A DNA stretch of 64,000 nt from Dehalococcoidia bacterium (GTDB lineage: Bacteria; Chloroflexota; Dehalococcoidia; UBA2979). The notes beneath the pieces were generated by a model that was given only the letters and a program-made list of their open reading frames with translations, made no database searches and had not been told where the DNA came from. The stretch is from contig JAPYRK010000010.1 in assembly GCA_029941115.1 (NCBI GenBank), forward strand, positions 2,527 through 66,526, in the 5' to 3' direction. The first letter of the stretch is position 1. Every line of letters begins with the position of its first letter. Of this stretch, positions 1 through 7,468 are shown in pieces. A program made the translations under genes and the position numbers.

Positions 1-56
1 AGAAACGCAGTAAGTAATCCTCCTGCGAGAGGTAATAATAGGAACGCAGCTAACAC
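1..56 (-). CDS. nuoM: NADH-quinone oxidoreductase subunit M, 5' end only (runs off the window)
   Basis: GTG at 56 with GAGGAG SD upstream, directly after the nuoL stop; translates MLAAFLLLPLAGGLLTAF..., typical of a NuoM first TM helix; position in operon. Confidence 0.7.
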   Translation of the reverse strand, partial: MLAAFLLLPLAGGLLTAF

Positions 57-72
57 TAAACTTCTCCTCGTC

Positions 73-2124
73 CTACTTCGGTGGAATCAAATTTTTTGGA
101 TTAAGTAATTTAAATGAGTAGTCAATAATTGCATGTACATCGATTCCGATGGAGCTCAACATATCGCCAGACAGGACTAAAAAGCCTCCGGCAACGGCCA
201 CAACGCCCACCATATAAAGAGACGTGTAACTTTGCAATTGTCCTGTTTCAGTCCTCCTCAGAGCTTCGCCTAAGAGTTTTGTTCCCGAGCCGACTCCGTT
301 GACTACAGGCTCAATTACGCGCTGATCGACGGCCTCTGCCCCTCGCGCAACACCATTAAGCAGTGCCATGCGTACCACACCAGTCTCAGCAAATTCATTG
401 ACGTAATAAAGTCTTCTTAGAATATTATGTGCTCGGGGAAATCGATCCTGAATAACCGCTGATGAAGGCTGATTCGCTAAATAAATCGCAGCGGCAGTAC
501 CGATTCCGCCTAGCGCCACGATAGTAGAAATAGTCAAGACAAAGCTGTCCATGTGGAAATGAAAATGCTGCATCTCCTTCGGGAGTGCTCCCTCAACAAA
601 TTCGCCAAAGTGAAGCAGCGCAGCAAAACCCAAAATGACTGCCGCCACGGACCCAATTAACATCGGAACTCCCATAGCCGGAGGAGACTCTGTAACGTGT
701 CCCTGGTAATTTCCATGGGCTTCATCTTCAGAACTATGATGGACCCCAGACGGATCGCCTCCTTTGTACTCGCCAAAAAAGGTCATGAAAATCACTCTAA
801 ACATGTACAAGGCGGTCATGAATGCCACAATGGTTCCGACAAGCCACAATAACTTATCAACATGCCAGGCCTCTAGCAAAATTTCATCTTTTGACCAAAA
901 ACCAGCGAGTGGGAAAATTCCTGATAAAGACAATGAGCCAATTACAAACGTTAGGAAGGTCAGAGGCATTTTGGTGCGTAAGCCGCCCATTTTAGGCATT
1001 TCGAATGTACCTGTTGCGTGGCTTACCGACCCGGCGCCCCAAAAAAGTAAGCTCTTGAAAAACGCATGTGTGAAAAGATGAAATATCGCAGCCACGTATC
1101 CGCCCAGACCAATCGCCATCACCATATAACCCAGCTGAGAAATTGTTGAGTACGCCAAAACACGTTTTATGTCAGTCACAACCAACGCCATTGAAGCCGC
1201 GAAAATGGCAGTAAAACCACCTACATAAGCTATTGCTGTTGATACTGATGCTGGTGCGGCTTCAATGGTTGGAAAGAATCTGGCGAGTAAATAAACTCCG
1301 GCTGCTACCATGGTTGCTGAGTGCACTATCGATGAGACGGGGGTCGGTCCTTCCATTGCGTCAGGTAACCAGAAATGCAAAGGAAATTGAGCGCTCTTAC
1401 CGGCCGCTCCTGCTAATAAACCAATAGTGAATCCAGTGAGAATTGGTGCCGAAATTAAACCCACATGCGCCATCTCATTAATTTCACTAATCGAAAATGT
1501 TCCGGTCTTGGCCCATATAAGCGTTACAGCCAGAACTAATCCAATATCACCGAATCGAGTAACAATGAATGCTTTCTTAGCAGCCGCAGCAGCCGAAGGG
1601 CGATCGAACCAAAATCCTATGAGTAGATATGACGTAAGGCCCACTAGTTCCCAGTGTATAAAAAGTTGCAAGAGACTTGAGGCCATAATTAACCCCAACA
1701 TCGACGCGACAAATAGCGACATAAACAAGAAAAATCTCGAGTACGCGGGGTCGTGTTCCATGTAACCCATCGAATATAATTGCACCAACAACGCGATTGA
1801 TGTGACTACGAAAATCATTACTGCCGACAAGCCATCAATTCCAAGGCCGAAGCTGATCTGAAGATCAAAAATAGAAAGCCATAAGTATTCGCCAAGCCCA
1901 ATATCTGCGCCATGATGCCCGATGGACATATCCAGCGTCCACAGACCTAATACCCATGACAAGACCGCAAATACTATGGCTATATTTCCTGCCCTATTTT
2001 CCGGCAAGACATTAGCCAAACGAGTTCTTCTAGCAAATATTGATACCGCTATAACCCCTGCGGATCCAAGTGGAGCCAGGTATATCAGCCAAATAAGAAA
2101 TTCAGGGATATCAGGTAAAAACAT
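73..2124 (-). CDS. nuoL: NADH-quinone oxidoreductase subunit L (antiporter-like)
   Basis: 683 aa hydrophobic; WELVGLTSYLLIGFW, GKSAQFPLHFWLPDAMEGPTPVS, AYSTISQLG, FHLFTHAFFK motifs. Confidence 0.97.
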   Translation of the reverse strand: MFLPDIPEFLIWLIYLAPLGSAGVIAVSIFARRTRLANVLPENRAGNIAIVFAVLSWVLGLWTLDMSIGHHGADIGLGEYLWLSIFDLQISFGLGIDGLSAVMIFVVTSIALLVQLYSMGYMEHDPAYSRFFLFMSLFVASMLGLIMASSLLQLFIHWELVGLTSYLLIGFWFDRPSAAAAAKKAFIVTRFGDIGLVLAVTLIWAKTGTFSISEINEMAHVGLISAPILTGFTIGLLAGAAGKSAQFPLHFWLPDAMEGPTPVSSIVHSATMVAAGVYLLARFFPTIEAAPASVSTAIAYVGGFTAIFAASMALVVTDIKRVLAYSTISQLGYMVMAIGLGGYVAAIFHLFTHAFFKSLLFWGAGSVSHATGTFEMPKMGGLRTKMPLTFLTFVIGSLSLSGIFPLAGFWSKDEILLEAWHVDKLLWLVGTIVAFMTALYMFRVIFMTFFGEYKGGDPSGVHHSSEDEAHGNYQGHVTESPPAMGVPMLIGSVAAVILGFAALLHFGEFVEGALPKEMQHFHFHMDSFVLTISTIVALGGIGTAAAIYLANQPSSAVIQDRFPRAHNILRRLYYVNEFAETGVVRMALLNGVARGAEAVDQRVIEPVVNGVGSGTKLLGEALRRTETGQLQSYTSLYMVGVVAVAGGFLVLSGDMLSSIGIDVHAIIDYSFKLLNPKNLIPPK

Positions 2125-2312
2125 TAAATTTTATTCAAAACCTCCCGAGCAACGTGCGTTTTTCCATCGGGGATCCAAAGTTCACGAGGGTCACTCATCC
2201 CAGTTGTCTCAATCGGGGGGATTATACGAACAGCAAGTGCCTCCTGATTGAAAAGTTCGCGCCACATCTCAGCTGAGTATCCGTCCTCAACATCCATAAA
2301 CTTAACCCACAT
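2124..2312 (-). CDS. small soluble protein, DUF2007/PII-like, inside the nuo operon
   Basis: 62 aa from ATG 2312 (GGGGTG SD); stop overlaps nuoL ATG; pattern WVKF..AEMWRELF..E.LAVRI...ELWIP....AREVL resembles DUF2007 (by eye). Confidence 0.7.
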   Translation of the reverse strand: MWVKFMDVEDGYSAEMWRELFNQEALAVRIIPPIETTGMSDPRELWIPDGKTHVAREVLNKI

Positions 2313-2324
2313 ATGACACCCCAA

Positions 2325-2675
2325 TTACCAACGCATCAAATTGATTCGGTCGAGATCAACTGTTTCGCGCTTTCGATACACCAAAACGGAAAGCGCAAGA
2401 GCAACTGCTGCTTCCGCTGCAGCTACACTCAAAATAAATACAACAAATACGTGGCCATCCACCAAACCTGCTTCACTCGACGTATTCTGCGGAAATCGTG
2501 AAAATGCTAACAGCGCCAAAATCGAACCATTGAGCATCAGCTCAATCCCCATTAATACGGCAATGGCGCTGCGTTTACCAAGCGCGATAGCAGTCCCTAA
2601 ACCGAAAACAGACCCCGATACAATCAGATAATGCACAAGGCCGATCTCGAATATTAGTTCAGAAATTCCGGTCAC
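2325..2675 (-). CDS. nuoK: NADH-quinone oxidoreductase subunit K
   Basis: LMGIELMLN and VAAAEAAVALAL motifs, 3 TM. Confidence 0.95.
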   Translation of the reverse strand: MTGISELIFEIGLVHYLIVSGSVFGLGTAIALGKRSAIAVLMGIELMLNGSILALLAFSRFPQNTSSEAGLVDGHVFVVFILSVAAAEAAVALALSVLVYRKRETVDLDRINLMRW

Positions 2676-3190
2676 CTGCCCTCGCCCTCCTCTGGATCTG
2701 AAGGCGAAATCTGCACAAGCATGATTGCGCCGATAAGCGCGAATAGCAGCAGCACTGACGCGATCTCGAAAGCCAAAACATATTTACCTAACAGTAAATT
2801 TCCAATTAAATCAATCGTAGTAGTGAAATCAGTCGCCGGACCAGACCAACTAGTGTCCAGGGCTAAAAAGCCCACAAAGGTGGCAATACCTCCTGCAGCA
2901 AGCAGTCCTGGTAAAACGTATATCGTATTTCCATTATCGCGGGAGGCCAGCGGAGTCAACATAACCGCAAACACCATAAGAACTGAAATGGAACCGGCAT
3001 AGATAAGAATTTGTGCCATCGCTATGAAGTCTGCCGATAATGTCAGAAATAATCCTGCCATGCCCAAAAACGAAATGACTAAGAAAGCTAAAGCGTGCAA
3101 TAAGTTTCTTGCAAGGAATACCAAAGTCCCAGAACCTAGTACCAGGCCCGCCATCATATAAAAACCGATAACAATTCCAGGAGAATCCAT
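2672..3190 (-). CDS. nuoJ: NADH-quinone oxidoreductase subunit J
   Basis: RNLLHA, ADFIAMAQILIYAG, FEIASVLLL motifs. Confidence 0.95.
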   Translation of the reverse strand: MDSPGIVIGFYMMAGLVLGSGTLVFLARNLLHALAFLVISFLGMAGLFLTLSADFIAMAQILIYAGSISVLMVFAVMLTPLASRDNGNTIYVLPGLLAAGGIATFVGFLALDTSWSGPATDFTTTIDLIGNLLLGKYVLAFEIASVLLLFALIGAIMLVQISPSDPEEGEGR

Positions 3191-3198
3191 CTAAATCA

Positions 3199-4629
3199 TC
3201 ATCCCCTTAGTACTTTTGCTGCTTGCAGACCGCCCATTTTTCGTGTCAAAATCGGAGCTGGTGGCGCCGAAAGATCAGTATCCCTAAATAGCACTCTCAT
3301 CCACACGAAAGTAAGACCTACTGCTGCCGCTACATTTACAAGCGCAATAAGTCCGAGAGACAAGAAGCTGGGAGCGTCCCACCGTACGAGGATTGAACTC
3401 TCAATGGCTGTCAAAAACATTAACGCAATTGATACAGGTATGAGAAACTTCCACGCGAAGCCCATTAATTGATCTAACCTAAATCGTGGTAGCGTCGCCC
3501 GTATCCAAACAAATAAGAAGTACACCAATCCAATCTTAGTAGCCAAAATCAGGTAGCCTGGAATCCAAGTCTCTAGACCAAAAAACGTGTACCCGCCTAG
3601 GAAAAATGTCGACATCAGGGCCCCTACAAGGATTGCGTTGCCCAGTTCGACAGCCATAAATAGTCCGGCCTTCATACCGGAATACTCTGTGTAAAAGCCA
3701 GCCACTATCTCGGATTCTGCTTCTCCAATATCATTCGGTGTCCGGTTTATTTCAGCGGTTGACGCAAATAGAAAGGCTAACGCCGCGAAAGGAATCAGCA
3801 TAATCAGCCATACTCCCTGTTCTGATTGCCACATAACTATCTCAGAAAGCTTCGTCGAGCCCGTTAAAAGGACTACTGCTAAAAGCGAGACCGATATCGG
3901 GATTTCATACGAGATCATCATTGCTATCGTACGCATGGCTCCAAGCAATGAATAATGATTATTTGAGGCCCACCCAGCCATGAACACTGCTAGCACTCCT
4001 AACGACGAAATGGCAATCACAAACAACACACCCACGTCCAAGTCTGCGTAGGACATCTTTGGTGACCATGGGATCGGAGCCCATCCAAGAATGGCTGGGA
4101 TAAATACAGCAATTGGTGGTGCGAAATACAAAAAACGGTCAGCTCCGCGAGGTATAATTATTTCCTTCTGCATGAGCTTTAAAGCATCTGCTAGGCTTTG
4201 GAGAAGGCCAAAAGGACCAGTTCTATTCGGGCCCTGTCGAATCTGAAATTTTGCGAGGAGTCGCCTTTCCGCCCAGGGACCTATAAGCAACCATCCTCCC
4301 ACAACAGAAACAATCCCCGTCGCGCCCAACAACGTCGGAATCAAATATGTAAGCGTAGACGCGATCCTAGAATCCATTCCACTACTGTTAATAGCATCGG
4401 ACAGACTGACCATCGCATTCCCAAAATCGCGGATGTCATACCACTTGCCGTCTAGTTGGCCTGAAACCACCATATATCCTATCAATATCTGGGAAATAAC
4501 AAAGCCAATTAGGGCAACTGAAAGCGCCACCAATACAAGCTTTGGGAGACCGAGGGCTCGATCCAGAAGAGAGCGATGTTCTGCTATCTGACGGGACATT
4601 GGCGTAGCTGGTCGCGTATCGCTACTCAT
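3199..4629 (-). CDS. nuoH: NADH-quinone oxidoreductase subunit H with N-terminal extension
   Basis: ERRLLAKFQIRQGPNRTGPFGLLQSLADALKL, AEINRTPND.EAESEIVAGFYTEYSG, RATLPRFRLDQLM; 476 aa, longer than the usual ~330-350. Confidence 0.95.
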   Translation of the reverse strand: MSSDTRPATPMSRQIAEHRSLLDRALGLPKLVLVALSVALIGFVISQILIGYMVVSGQLDGKWYDIRDFGNAMVSLSDAINSSGMDSRIASTLTYLIPTLLGATGIVSVVGGWLLIGPWAERRLLAKFQIRQGPNRTGPFGLLQSLADALKLMQKEIIIPRGADRFLYFAPPIAVFIPAILGWAPIPWSPKMSYADLDVGVLFVIAISSLGVLAVFMAGWASNNHYSLLGAMRTIAMMISYEIPISVSLLAVVLLTGSTKLSEIVMWQSEQGVWLIMLIPFAALAFLFASTAEINRTPNDIGEAESEIVAGFYTEYSGMKAGLFMAVELGNAILVGALMSTFFLGGYTFFGLETWIPGYLILATKIGLVYFLFVWIRATLPRFRLDQLMGFAWKFLIPVSIALMFLTAIESSILVRWDAPSFLSLGLIALVNVAAAVGLTFVWMRVLFRDTDLSAPPAPILTRKMGGLQAAKVLRG

Positions 4630-5729
4630 CTATCAATCTCCCCCACAACAATGTCTAGTGACCCCAGAGTCACAATCGCGTCTGATAATGCGGCATCACG
4701 TCCCAGTTCATTCAACAGCGATAAATTAATCAGGCTAGGCGCACGCAAGTGAAAGCGGTACGGAAATGGGCCTCCATCCGATACGAGAAAAAACCCAATC
4801 TCACCTCGTGGGCTCTCGATACGTGAGTAAATCTCGCCCTCATCTGGCCGAAGAGCCAAGGGAATATCTGTTTTATGAGCCCCAGATGGGATTTGTGAAA
4901 TTGCTTGCTTAATAATCTTTACAGATTGATAGAGTTCGCTCATTCGCACCATGAATCGGTCGTATACATCACCGGATTTTCCAACTACCACATCGAAATC
5001 CATTCGATCATAAACGGAGTATGGATCTGCCTTCCTTAAGTCCCATGGAATGCCGCTCCCTCTCAGTACCGGACCGGTTAACGACGCGTTAACTGCATCT
5101 TCGGGGGAAATAACACCCACTCCTCGTGTTCTGGCCAAAAATACCTCATTAGACACTAGAAGTTCGTGGTACTCATCAATGCGATCGGGCAGCTCATCGA
5201 CCAATTCTTGAAGTGCGGGCCAGAATTCTACAGGTGGGTCAAAGGCAACGCCACCAATTCTCATATAGTTGGTTGTTAATCGAGCTCCGCATGTCATCTC
5301 AAAGAGGTCAAGTATCTTTTCTCGTTCGCGAAACATATAGAGAAGTGGTGTCTGCCAGGCGCCGGCATCAGAAATTAATGTGCCATTAGCCATGGCATGA
5401 GATGCGATTCTCTGTAATTCAGAAAAAATCACTCGAAGATATTCAGCGCGCTCTGGTACTTCTACACCGGCCAATCGCTCAACCGCGATGGCCAGGCCTA
5501 AGTTCCCCGTCATGGCTGCTAAGTAGTCGGCCCGATCAGTGAAAGGAATATTCTGGGTGAATGTTCGTTCCTCAGCCAATTTCTCCATCGAACGATGTAA
5601 ATATCCAACAATCATGTCTAGATCTTTTATTTTCTCGCCATCCATCACAACCCGTAAACGAAATACTCCGTGAGTTGATGGATGCTGCGGTCCAATATTT
5701 AAGACATATGGCTCTGTGGAGGTGGTCAT
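4626..5729 (-). CDS. nuoD: NADH-quinone oxidoreductase subunit D
   Basis: NIGPQHPSTHG, GYLHRSMEK, DRADY, ESPRGE, GEIDR C-terminus. Confidence 0.97.
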   Translation of the reverse strand: MTTSTEPYVLNIGPQHPSTHGVFRLRVVMDGEKIKDLDMIVGYLHRSMEKLAEERTFTQNIPFTDRADYLAAMTGNLGLAIAVERLAGVEVPERAEYLRVIFSELQRIASHAMANGTLISDAGAWQTPLLYMFREREKILDLFEMTCGARLTTNYMRIGGVAFDPPVEFWPALQELVDELPDRIDEYHELLVSNEVFLARTRGVGVISPEDAVNASLTGPVLRGSGIPWDLRKADPYSVYDRMDFDVVVGKSGDVYDRFMVRMSELYQSVKIIKQAISQIPSGAHKTDIPLALRPDEGEIYSRIESPRGEIGFFLVSDGGPFPYRFHLRAPSLINLSLLNELGRDAALSDAIVTLGSLDIVVGEIDR

Positions 5730-5738
5730 ATCCTGTGA

Positions 5739-6353
5739 TCAACCTCTACCTTCACTGAGATCAGTCTCAGCTCTATTCTCATCTGTTTCACCCGTAACAA
5801 CATAAGCTACGCCGGCCTCAACGTTTTCCTGATTAATTGGCCGAATCGGTTTGTCCTTATCTTCAAATGGGAAACCTTCTAAACCTGGAGTAATTCTCCC
5901 CGGCATCGCCAAAAAGTCCTTACGAAGAGGATGACCAGGAAACCCATCCCACAAAAATAGTCTACGCAAATCAGGATGCCCTTCAAATCGCACACCCATA
6001 AGATCGTAAACTTCCCTTTCCTGCAGTAAAGCTCCTTTGTAAACCGGATATGCACTCTGAACAACTGCCGGATCCATACCATGAGTTCTCGTCTTGACTA
6101 CCAGTTGATGATTCAAGTCTAGGCTTTGTAGATGGTAAATAACTTCGATGTGTGTATGTCTGTCAACTGCAGTTAAATTAGACAACTGAGCCGCATCAAA
6201 TTCATCCGAATCAAGCAACCACCGCAAGGCCTCAATCACTCGATCCGGAGCGACTTCTATCCATTCATCAGTGACCGCAGTGACAATGTCTGGTAACGAT
6301 TTACCCAATACTTGACTCACGAAAATTCCTGATAATTGTGTGGCGGTGCGCAT
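5739..6353 (-). CDS. nuoC: NADH-quinone oxidoreductase subunit C
   Basis: EREVYDLMGVRFEGHPDLRRL and GHPLRKDF motifs; ATG 6353 preferred over the upstream start at 6371, which overlaps nuoA. Confidence 0.95.
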   Translation of the reverse strand: MRTATQLSGIFVSQVLGKSLPDIVTAVTDEWIEVAPDRVIEALRWLLDSDEFDAAQLSNLTAVDRHTHIEVIYHLQSLDLNHQLVVKTRTHGMDPAVVQSAYPVYKGALLQEREVYDLMGVRFEGHPDLRRLFLWDGFPGHPLRKDFLAMPGRITPGLEGFPFEDKDKPIRPINQENVEAGVAYVVTGETDENRAETDLSEGRG

Positions 6354-6361
6354 AGTTTTTC

Positions 6362-6736
6362 CTAACGCCATTCCAGAGCCCGTTTACGCCAAGCGTAAAC
6401 AAGTCCGAGCAGTAGAATTCCAATAAATAAAACGGCCTTCCACAGCACCGTTAGAGCTAGCTCTTGATGCTCTACCGCCCACGGGTACAGAAAAATTACT
6501 TCAACATCGAAAATCACAAATCCGAGTGCGAAAAGATAATATCGTGCGTTGAATTGGCCCCATGAAGAACCCTCGGCTTCAACGCCACATTCGTATGTCG
6601 CGAGTTTGATCGGGTTGGGGTTTTCGGGTCGAATCTTTAATTGGTAAAGCAGGAAAGACACCATTATTGGCAACATCGGGAATGCAATTGCCAAAGTGAA
6701 CAAGATTCCCACTCGACCAAATACTTCGGGGATCAC
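6362..6736 (-). CDS. nuoA: NADH-quinone oxidoreductase subunit A
   Basis: TYECG, FDVEVIFLYPWA, YAWRKRALEW motifs; GGAGG SD. Confidence 0.96.
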   Translation of the reverse strand: MIPEVFGRVGILFTLAIAFPMLPIMVSFLLYQLKIRPENPNPIKLATYECGVEAEGSSWGQFNARYYLFALGFVIFDVEVIFLYPWAVEHQELALTVLWKAVLFIGILLLGLVYAWRKRALEWR

Positions 6737-6836
6737 GTGCGCCTCCGTATGTACCCTATCCAGCCTTAACGGCGAGGTTATCTTGCCTGATAGATGCGAG
6801 CAACTGTAAATTGATTTATTTTAGTATTTAAAAATT

Positions 6837-7319
6837 CTAAGACAGTTCAGTGACCCCTCCGTTCTCCATCCCCTTTGCCGTGTCTAATGTTTTAGCAGCT
6901 ACGACAATAAACTCTAAATCCAGCGAGCCCGTGTTTCGGATCTGATGAGGAATCGCCGCCGGAAAAAACAAAAAGTCACCAGCCTCTACGTCCTTACGCC
7001 AGGGGCCGCAGTCAATTTCCGCACTTCCAGTGATGAAGTAATAAATCTTCTCCACGTCATCATGAACATGCCTCACATTTGTTTCCCCTGCCGAGAGTTT
7101 GTTGAACAAAGAAAACTGAAATGAGCTCTCAAAAATACCTTCACTCTCCTGAAACATTCGTCGAATTGCAAGGTTACGAGTTATTACGGGCTCAACCGAT
7201 TCTTTTGAGCGCGTCACAAATCGTGCATCCGTAGGAGGAGAAGTTATCTCTCCTGTAAACTCAGGAACCGCCGGTGGTAAGTTATTTTCACTGGGACTAT
7301 CAGGTGCATTTTCAGTCAT
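6837..7319 (-). CDS. cupin-domain protein
   Basis: HVHDDVEKIYYFITG and GDFLFFPAAIPHQIRN cupin motifs. Confidence 0.85.
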   Translation of the reverse strand: MTENAPDSPSENNLPPAVPEFTGEITSPPTDARFVTRSKESVEPVITRNLAIRRMFQESEGIFESSFQFSLFNKLSAGETNVRHVHDDVEKIYYFITGSAEIDCGPWRKDVEAGDFLFFPAAIPHQIRNTGSLDLEFIVVAAKTLDTAKGMENGGVTELS

Positions 7320-7393
7320 CTCGGCCTCTCTTATTACTACTTAGGTGAGAAGAGAATCATAGCGTCTGATGATGAAAATTCAAAACCTCTCAC

Positions 7394-7468
7394 CATAGGT
7401 GGTTGACCTGCACCTATGATTGGCAATACATTGCCCGTTGTCAGTAAAAAAACTTTTTTTTTACTGAC
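7394..7468 (+). promoter_or_regulatory. sigma70-like promoter overlaid by three inverted repeats
   Basis: TTGACC(7403-7408)-N18-TACATT(7427-7432); CATAGGTG-N9-CACCTATG (7394-7418); GGCAAT-AC-ATTGCC (7422-7435); GTCAGTAAAAAAA-CTT-TTTTTTTACTGAC (7440-7468). Confidence 0.6.

Follow-up and report, generated by a model that had tools for sequence, protein, structure and literature searches.

The iron-sulfur subunits missing from a complex I operon of a Dehalococcoidia bacterium are probably encoded elsewhere in its genome

Introduction

A stretch of 64,000 nucleotides (nt) from the genome of a Dehalococcoidia bacterium (phylum Chloroflexota; GenBank assembly GCA_029941115.1, here G000), comprising positions 2527–66526 of contig JAPYRK010000010.1 (C10) and called the window below, begins with a complex I operon from which nuoB and nuoI are missing. 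A first-pass annotation, made from this sequence alone, pointed out that no gene in the operon carries a redox cofactor and offered two explanations, namely that nuoB and nuoI had been relocated or that the operon encodes a new variant with a different electron entry. From where, then, would the quinone site of this enzyme receive its electrons? Here, we followed the missing genes through the same genome, through related loci and through the class. We put a probability of about 85% on the reading that a complete, ordinary complex I is encoded in two portions, with the cofactor-free one (membrane arm, NuoC, NuoD and a small protein, x) in the window and the iron-sulfur (Fe-S) subunits elsewhere in the genome.

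Results

A complex I operon without nuoB and nuoI

Open reading frame (ORF) calls and Pfam matches, by which all genes of the operon except x were named, gave the minus-strand order nuoA-C-D-H-J-K-x-L, followed by nuoM and nuoN (Table 1). On the same contig, nuoN comes after nuoM (ORFs of C10:1-3000) and is cut by the contig end. C10 carries all seven membrane subunit genes: A, H, J, K and L, by Pfam matches, inside the window, M running past its edge, and N beyond it. No NuoB or NuoI match was found among the ORFs of window positions 1–7400, bearing out the first-pass annotation, whose 8-nt gaps between nuoA and nuoC and between nuoH and nuoJ and whose nuoD/nuoH overlap (a shared ATGA) are exact. 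The longest nuoC ORF, starting at 6371, overlaps nuoA by 10 nt; the ATG at 6353 lies 8 nt past the nuoA stop and has an AGGA six bases upstream. NuoD retains the quinone-site His and Tyr that the same annotation had credited to it (His20 and Tyr69 upon alignment to Thermus Nqo4; 356 bits), which we take to correspond to H38 and Y87 of Nqo4. The loop around this His (NuoD residues 11–24) is encoded by the 42 nt at window positions 5658–5699, the sole stretch matched by otherwise unlike contigs in all four sequencing runs and the most conserved part of nuoD.

The junctions were compared with contigs from one run each of three other studies, leaving out a run marked as a possible source. The A-C junction is bridged by contigs of runs X3 (5157–6729), X6 (6047–7000) and X7 (6086–6855), and the H-J junction by contigs of the same three runs (X3, 2000–3546; X6, 2760–3957; X7, 2887–3397), with 0–3 differences, no indel and no joint. 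In addition, a NuoD scan of one genome per species yielded 404 relatives, of which the best 80 loci (65–97% identity) were retained; all are from Dehalococcoidia or Chloroflexota metagenome-assembled genomes (MAGs), several of them complete chromosomes. The ORFs up to 9 kb to either side of nuoD were searched with all subunits of both nuo operons of this genome (see below), NuoB and NuoI at E<=1e-4. On the nuoD strand, all matches belong to the series A-C-D-H-J-K-x-L-M-N in 80 of 80 loci (apparent neighbour swaps in the gene listing are longest-ORF calls overrunning the preceding gene), while a NuoB or NuoI ORF was found in none of the 80 within these limits. The stops of nuoA and nuoC are 512–658 nt apart in all 77 loci with both genes, compared to 1071 nt where nuoB is in place, and those of nuoH and nuoJ are 212–700 nt apart (73/73 loci), compared to 1067 nt where nuoI is in place, so there is no room for either gene. 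A position of nuoB and nuoI just past the window is likewise ruled out, given that the contig ends in nuoN and that the relatives' loci contain neither gene.

NuoB, NuoI, NuoG-like and NuoE-NuoF proteins encoded at other loci

The genome assembly amounts to 1.91 Mb in 56 contigs and is 92.6% complete. A genome-wide search, as the first-pass annotation had proposed, revealed two NuoB-family genes, one in a second, canonical nuo operon and one orphan, NuoB2 (269 residues, C7:70118-70927), which scores 230.6 bits on TIGR01957 (cut-off 142.7). NuoB2 has kept the four cysteines of cluster N2, C97 and C98 (in CCxxE), C163, and C193 (in CPP). On contig C5, the search detected NuoI2 (194 residues, C5:11807-12391), the top NuoI match of the genome with 103 bits, compared to 79 bits for the NuoI of the canonical operon; both of its CxxCxxCxxxCP motifs are present. 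nuoI2 lies 20 nt upstream of a gene for an 844-residue NuoG-like protein with 2Fe-2S, 4Fe-4S and molybdopterin-fold domains, and is itself preceded by AhpC, NifU-like scaffold and MobA-like genes.

Two NuoE-NuoF pairs, with 2Fe-2S, flavin mononucleotide (FMN) and N3 domains, are encoded on contigs C1 and C29. Orthologues of the C29-type NuoF occur at 40–61% identity throughout the 61 genomes with a NuoB2-type protein described below. The C1 pair (C1:163192-165161) lies at a contig end. Altogether, genes or candidate genes for all 14 core complex I subunit types are present, distributed over at least four loci.

The NuoG-like protein scores best on the NuoG model and bears an Ile where the formate dehydrogenase FdsA has its Mo-ligand Cys (VCH motif). 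For these reasons, we read it as a presumably non-catalytic, NuoG-type subunit; a working formate dehydrogenase was rejected on the Ile substitution, an alignment reading alone. Another open frame on C5 (about 47.7–49.9 kb, minus strand; 958 residues) is distantly similar to this NuoG-like protein (24–33% identity in pieces) and falls into the length class of FdsA-type alpha subunits.

The nuoB2 gene is flanked by a Cpn60 gene and a major facilitator superfamily (MFS) transporter gene, with genes for a nickel superoxide dismutase (Ni-SOD) and its S26 peptidase beyond. The neighbourhood C7:66514-72663 as a whole contains genes for a NifS-like desulfurase, the S26 peptidase, Ni-SOD, the MFS transporter, NuoB2 and Cpn60, with the desulfurase gene 2.4 kb from nuoB2 on the opposite strand. 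A terminator-like hairpin with a 14-bp stem lies between the Cpn60 gene and nuoB2. A consensus scan found no sigma-70-type promoter upstream of nuoB2, and a pattern search for a shared Rex-box-like operator near the nuo loci gave nothing relevant.

The window NuoD as the probable partner of NuoB2

The genome contains exactly two NuoD genes. As one NuoB gene resides in the canonical operon and the other is an orphan, the NuoD of the window is the only one without a linked NuoB. We rejected the possibility that the orphan is a hydrogenase small subunit, because it passes the NuoB models and because no PF00374 match, and hence no [NiFe] hydrogenase large subunit, was detected in the genome. With two NuoD proteins and no such large subunit, the NuoD of the window is the sole possible partner of NuoB2.

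The second operon comprises 11 genes, nuoABCDHIJKLMN (C5:26745-37053), with a nuoB and a nuoI of its own. Its proteins are 31–47% identical to those of the window operon, which marks it as an old paralogue, and the two NuoB proteins share 48% identity. The second operon is a separate enzyme. Among the class genomes examined, a NuoB of the second-operon type (op1) is present in G107, G136, G149 and G195 and absent from G032; in G107, G136 and G149 it occurs alongside an intact operon of the x-containing type. Given this distribution, the relocation is not tied to the presence of the second operon.

A relocation common to one clade of the class

We searched a sample of 201 genomes of the class, this one included, with NuoB2, x, NuoI2 and the NuoG-like protein. 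NuoB2 scores are bimodal, with 270–610 bits in 61 genomes and <=255 bits in the remainder. NuoI2 scores are likewise bimodal (>=210 bits in 58 genomes, <=159 elsewhere), and all 58 of these genomes are among the 61, as are all 57 with NuoG-like matches of at least 474 bits. Outside the 61, coordinates place B, I and x collinearly on one contig and strand in 53 genomes, with a B-to-x span of about 4.3–5.9 kb (in G107, for instance, at 1516277, 1519580 and 1520965). Two such operons (L125, L126) have the intact order A-B-C-D-H-I-J-K-x-L-M-N, and their subunits mostly score best against the window-operon proteins or NuoB2/NuoI2; exceptions scoring slightly higher to the second operon are NuoN in both and NuoK in L125.

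Within the 61, by contrast, x and NuoB2 are far apart in complete genomes, the nearest pair being separated by 53 kb (G089). In two complete, single-contig genomes of the window's own family (G074, G097), the distance is 0.35–1.5 Mb; this identical scattering in complete genomes means that a binning error is no explanation. Ordinary nuoB and nuoI genes just beyond the window, which by the first-pass annotation would have reduced its observation to a simple rearrangement, are not what we see; both genes reside on other contigs.

In a maximum-likelihood tree of NuoB proteins (34 rows, midpoint-rooted), the op1 type and the x type form two deep clades, each with support of 100/100. In the x-type clade, the four in-operon copies branch basally, and the 20 relocated copies all fall into a single clade (98/96). 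These sequence comparisons show that the unlinked NuoB2 and NuoI2 are orthologues of the in-operon NuoB and NuoI of the x-type operon in related families and that their relocation is common to one clade. Of the two explanations in the first-pass annotation, relocation is therefore the one that we find supported, by the two NuoD and two NuoB proteins, the lack of a [NiFe] large subunit and the orthology of the unlinked to the in-operon proteins; the comparison with related Dehalococcoidia that it called for returned the split order in the 80 close relatives' loci and the intact operon in other families.

New neighbourhoods of the relocated genes

In 12 of the 58 genomes with both genes, nuoB2 and nuoI2 are adjacent, B before I, and their aligned parts are 45–129 nt apart. 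Locus L109 reads nifS-like, nuoB2, nuoI2, nuoG; L110 has the same genes plus one ORF, and L121 has nuoB2-nuoI2-nuoG. Five further loci (L111, L112, L113, L114, L116) have 1–4 kb inserted between nuoB2 and nuoI2-nuoG, and in all of these except L114 the insert carries a Ni-SOD and/or an S26 peptidase gene. Across the relatives' nuoB2/nuoI2 loci, Ni-SOD genes are seen in L111, L112, L113 and L116, S26 peptidase genes in L111, L113 and L116, and Cpn60 genes in L111, L116 and L119.

A gene for a NifS/IscS-like cysteine desulfurase lies directly 5' of nuoB2 on the same strand in seven of 13 relatives' loci (L109, L110, L111, L112, L114, L116, L119); these seven proteins score 434–517 bits on TIGR03402, just below its cut-off of 530.75. 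L113 has a canonical IscS-NifU pair directly upstream of nuoB2, a desulfurase gene lies 2.6–6 kb from nuoB2 in L115, L117 and L122, and none was seen in loci L121 and L123.

Of the 57 genomes with a NuoG-like gene, 46 have it less than 300 nt from nuoI2, ten have it 0.5–10 kb away, and one, a fragmented assembly, has it on another contig. In families with an intact operon, the nearest NuoG-like gene product is 33–39% identical over the first 480 residues, and in G032 and G012 its gene adjoins nuoF instead. In G026 (contigs C19 and C50), NuoG-like genes occur both next to nuoF and next to nuoB-nuoI, two in all; this genome may represent an intermediate stage of the rearrangement.

The small protein x

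The likely start of x is the methionine of MWVKF at 2312, giving a protein of 62 residues; MWxKF is the conserved form of this start. Of the 201 class genomes, 145 have homologues, and the gene lies between nuoK and nuoL wherever its context was seen, in intact as well as in split operons. The protein has no Pfam or NCBIfam match and is soluble, in that no transmembrane segment is predicted. A structure model (pLDDT 95.9) shows a beta-alpha-beta-beta-alpha arrangement, for which a Foldseek comparison with the PDB yielded nothing at E<=0.001; its top rows are generic alpha/beta domains including 2hfv (TMq 0.71). Comparison with the Atlas gave Chloroflexota hypothetical clusters only, plus a weak DUF2007 lead (0.87). 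Based on its fixed place between nuoK and nuoL, x is a candidate accessory subunit or assembly factor.

Other features of the window operon and its surroundings

The coordinates of the operon are collected in Table 1. NuoH, at 476 residues, is longer than its counterparts in intact-operon relatives (383–402 residues) and, in a transmembrane scan, has an N-terminal extension of about 100 residues with one added predicted transmembrane helix as well as a C-terminal tail. Further extensions are found in NuoC (C-terminal), NuoB2 (both ends) and NuoI2 (C-terminal). Upstream of nuoA, at a distance of 100 nt, lies a cupin-domain gene of the same orientation (6837–7319, minus strand). As promoter-like sites are found upstream of the cupin gene and none between the two, cupin gene and nuoA may be co-transcribed. 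RNA run X21 gave only short contigs, 95–99% alike, over nuoD and nuoH, which are not expression evidence for this strain.

Table 1. Features of the nuo operon in the window (window coordinates)
Feature	Position	Strand	Length and description
nuoA	6362..6736	-	124 aa; Oxidored_q4 118 bits
nuoA-nuoC spacer	6354..6361	-	8 nt; nuoB position in ancestral-type operons (nuoB present here in L125, L126)
nuoC	5739..6371	-	204 aa with the likelier start, ATG 6353 (210 aa with 6371); Complex1_30kDa 126 bits
nuoD	4626..5729	-	367 aa; NF004739 445 bits (cut-off 360)
nuoH	3199..4629	-	476 aa; NADHdh 352 bits, residues 106-408
nuoH-nuoJ spacer	3191..3198	-	8 nt; nuoI position in ancestral-type operons (nuoI present here in L125, L126)
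nuoJ	2672..3190	-	172 aa; Oxidored_q3 113 bits
nuoK	2325..2675	-	116 aa; Oxidored_q2 77.5 bits
x	2124..2324	-	66-aa ORF; no Pfam family
nuoL	73..2124	-	683 aa; Proton_antipo_M 258 bits, Proton_antipo_N 70 bits
nuoM, 5' end	1..56	-	491-aa gene runs on outside the window; 35% identical to second-operon NuoM

Discussion

A probably complete complex I encoded at scattered loci

We infer from these comparisons that the window subunits would assemble and work with NuoB2, NuoI2 and the NuoG-like protein as in canonical complex I. The Fe-S subunits would be supplied by nuoB2 on C7, by nuoI2 and the nuoG-like gene on C5, and by nuoE-nuoF on C29. Electrons would pass from NADH to FMN in NuoF, along an Fe-S chain via NuoG and NuoI to N2 in NuoB, and from there to quinone at the His and Tyr of NuoD, and this flow would drive the pumping of protons by NuoA, H, J, K, L, M and N. 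For the class, the ancestral gene order would have been nuoA-B-C-D-H-I-J-K-x-L-M-N. In one Dehalococcoidia subclade, nuoB and nuoI would have left this operon once and joined nuoG, the moved cluster commonly coming to lie just downstream of a NifS-like desulfurase gene (nifS-nuoB-nuoI-nuoG). In the family of the present genome, the cluster would then have been broken again, into nuoB2 and nuoI2-nuoG.

Several observations weigh against this reading. The pairing of NuoB2, NuoI2 and NuoG with the window subunits rests on gene counts, orthology, co-occurrence and kept ligands, and the compared genomes are kin rather than independent, so that the support looks stronger in the co-occurrence counts than it is. 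On TIGR01971, NuoI2 reaches 101.8 bits, below the curated cut-off of 113, and the NuoG-like protein, although topping on the NuoG model, stays below the cut-off as well (228 versus 470 bits), with FdsA as its nearest solved relative by sequence. Two NuoE-NuoF pairs are available for two complexes, and either pair may belong to the complex of the window; at E<=1e-120, a threshold too strict for further conclusions, the C1-type NuoF matched none of the 200 other sampled genomes, those of its own family included. Three of the 61 genomes with a NuoB2-type protein have no NuoI2-type match, namely G131 (81% complete), G077 (86% complete) and G026, where a more divergent NuoI is encoded 0.5 kb from NuoB2. 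Finally, the genome under study is itself 92.6% complete and in 56 contigs.

Alternative explanations

One alternative treats nuoB2-nuoI2-nuoG as an exchangeable or conditional Fe-S cassette that might dock on either membrane module, along the lines of the separately regulated or exchangeable electron-input modules suggested by the first-pass annotation. Its regulation would be independent of the membrane operon and might respond, for instance, to iron or oxidative stress. nuoB, nuoI and nuoG are indeed transcription units apart from the membrane operon, nuoB2 is preceded by the hairpin, NifS-like desulfurase, NifU-like scaffold, Ni-SOD and AhpC genes stand alongside in several genomes, and a separation of B and I is likewise indicated by passages on Acidobacteria (10.1101/197269) and other Chloroflexi (PMC7117926). 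However, no regulatory site was found, the search for Rex-box-like patterns near these genes having come back empty, and the nifS linkage is not universal, being direct in the seven of 13 relatives' loci described above, with iscS-nifU in one more. We consider a cassette of this kind improbable.

Alternatively, the complex of the window might borrow NuoB and NuoI from the second operon, leaving the orphan NuoB2 and NuoI2-NuoG to serve something else. A complete nuoABCDHIJKLMN with its own B and I is available in the same genome, and the identity between the two NuoB copies makes cross-assembly conceivable. Against such borrowing, NuoB2 and NuoI2 are orthologous to the in-operon B and I of the x-type operon of related families, whereas the NuoB of the second operon falls into the other deep clade; no further NuoD-like protein or hydrogenase large subunit exists as a partner for NuoB2; and in G032 an x-type operon occurs without any op1-type NuoB, showing that an x-type enzyme is independent of the second operon. 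This arrangement appears to us less probable still than a cassette.

A complex-I-like machine devoid of Fe-S subunits might have a new electron entry, as in the second option of the first-pass annotation, or act as a redox-independent ion pump. In its favour, the operon itself is without a cofactor-bearing gene, also in all 80 related loci. Yet a matching B, I and G set is present in the same genome, this set co-occurs with the layout (58/58 NuoI2-type and 57/57 NuoG-type genomes are of the NuoB2 type), and the NuoD residues that take electrons from N2 are retained. We therefore regard a machine of this kind as very improbable. An assembly or binning artefact at the junctions, which a fragmented, metagenome-type assembly of 56 contigs might have invited, has next to no probability and is ruled out by the bridging contigs of the three other studies, by the same order in 80 of 80 loci, complete chromosomes included, and by the junction spacing.

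Relation to known complex I gene layouts

The complete, scattered complex I that we favour resembles the 14-subunit enzymes of Thermus thermophilus (Nqo) and E. coli (Nuo) in that all 14 core types would be encoded and in its NuoD His/Tyr pair, the four NuoB cysteines and the two sets of four NuoI cysteines. It differs from them in having no single operon but genes at four or more loci, in the additional 62-residue soluble protein x encoded between nuoK and nuoL, in the extensions of NuoH, NuoC, NuoB2 and NuoI2, and in a divergent NuoG that stays below the NCBIfam cut-off. An 11-subunit complex I-like enzyme (nuoABCDHIJKLMN without EFG) is discussed in PMC11238625, and the second operon is of this form. 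The ancestral-type x operon consists of these 11 genes plus x, with E, F and G elsewhere, whereas the window operon is without B and I as well.

The layout nuoACDHJKLMN with unlinked nuoB and nuoI is of a known kind, of which Dehalococcoidia are a new lineage example. A passage of a preprint on peatland Acidobacteria (Hausmann et al., 10.1101/197269) ascribes "nuoACDHJKLMN operons" to all of its MAGs; the main text of the journal version is silent on nuo genes. As far as that passage goes, these operons of another phylum have the same content, with neither B nor I. The difference lies in the origin, which can here be traced within the class to an intact A-B-C-D-H-I-J-K-x-L-M-N operon; that B and I here joined nuoG and a nifS-like gene may be another. 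As the origin was traced inside the class to an intact ancestor, the split in Dehalococcoidia is most likely an event independent of that in Acidobacteria.

Closer in phylogeny, a passage in a paper on Lost City Chloroflexi (PMC7117926, citing Chadwick et al. 2018) describes a '2M' complex I, with a second nuoM between nuoL and nuoN, a fused nuoCD, and nuoBCDI apart. That system, as portrayed there, is from the same phylum and also has Q-module genes apart from the membrane-subunit genes. In the present case, by contrast, B and I alone have left, C and D remain unfused in the operon, and there is one nuoM, so the operon is not of the '2M' type. A full-text literature search returned no description of the present layout in Dehalococcoidia, and the passages seen of PMC12361115 do not contain it. 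What is added to the known kind is this lineage, a traceable single origin, the grouping of nuoB, nuoI and nuoG beside nifS, and x.

Implications

What looks like a cofactor-free complex I operon would thus belong to a normal enzyme, the genes of which are scattered, and metabolic reconstruction of MAGs that relies on operons could easily be misled by it. The locus also offers a clean and datable case of the dismantling of a conserved operon, with one event in Dehalococcoidia and with intact and split forms both extant. The sorting was confined to the Fe-S wire, with B and I joining G, and the moved genes often landed beside genes for Fe-S biogenesis. One could speculate, as a rather unlikely extension of these findings, that the NuoG-NuoI-NuoB wire was gathered beside NifS-like and NifU-like genes so that the cell can first make a membrane arm with NuoC and NuoD that is free of cofactors and then, depending on how much iron or oxidative stress there is, add, withhold or swap an Fe-S cassette, that this arose independently in Acidobacteria and Chloroflexota, and that x is a lineage-specific accessory subunit or assembly factor. 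If the recurrence of the split in unrelated phyla does reflect selection for separate control of the Fe-S subunits, it would bear on the assembly and regulation of complex I.

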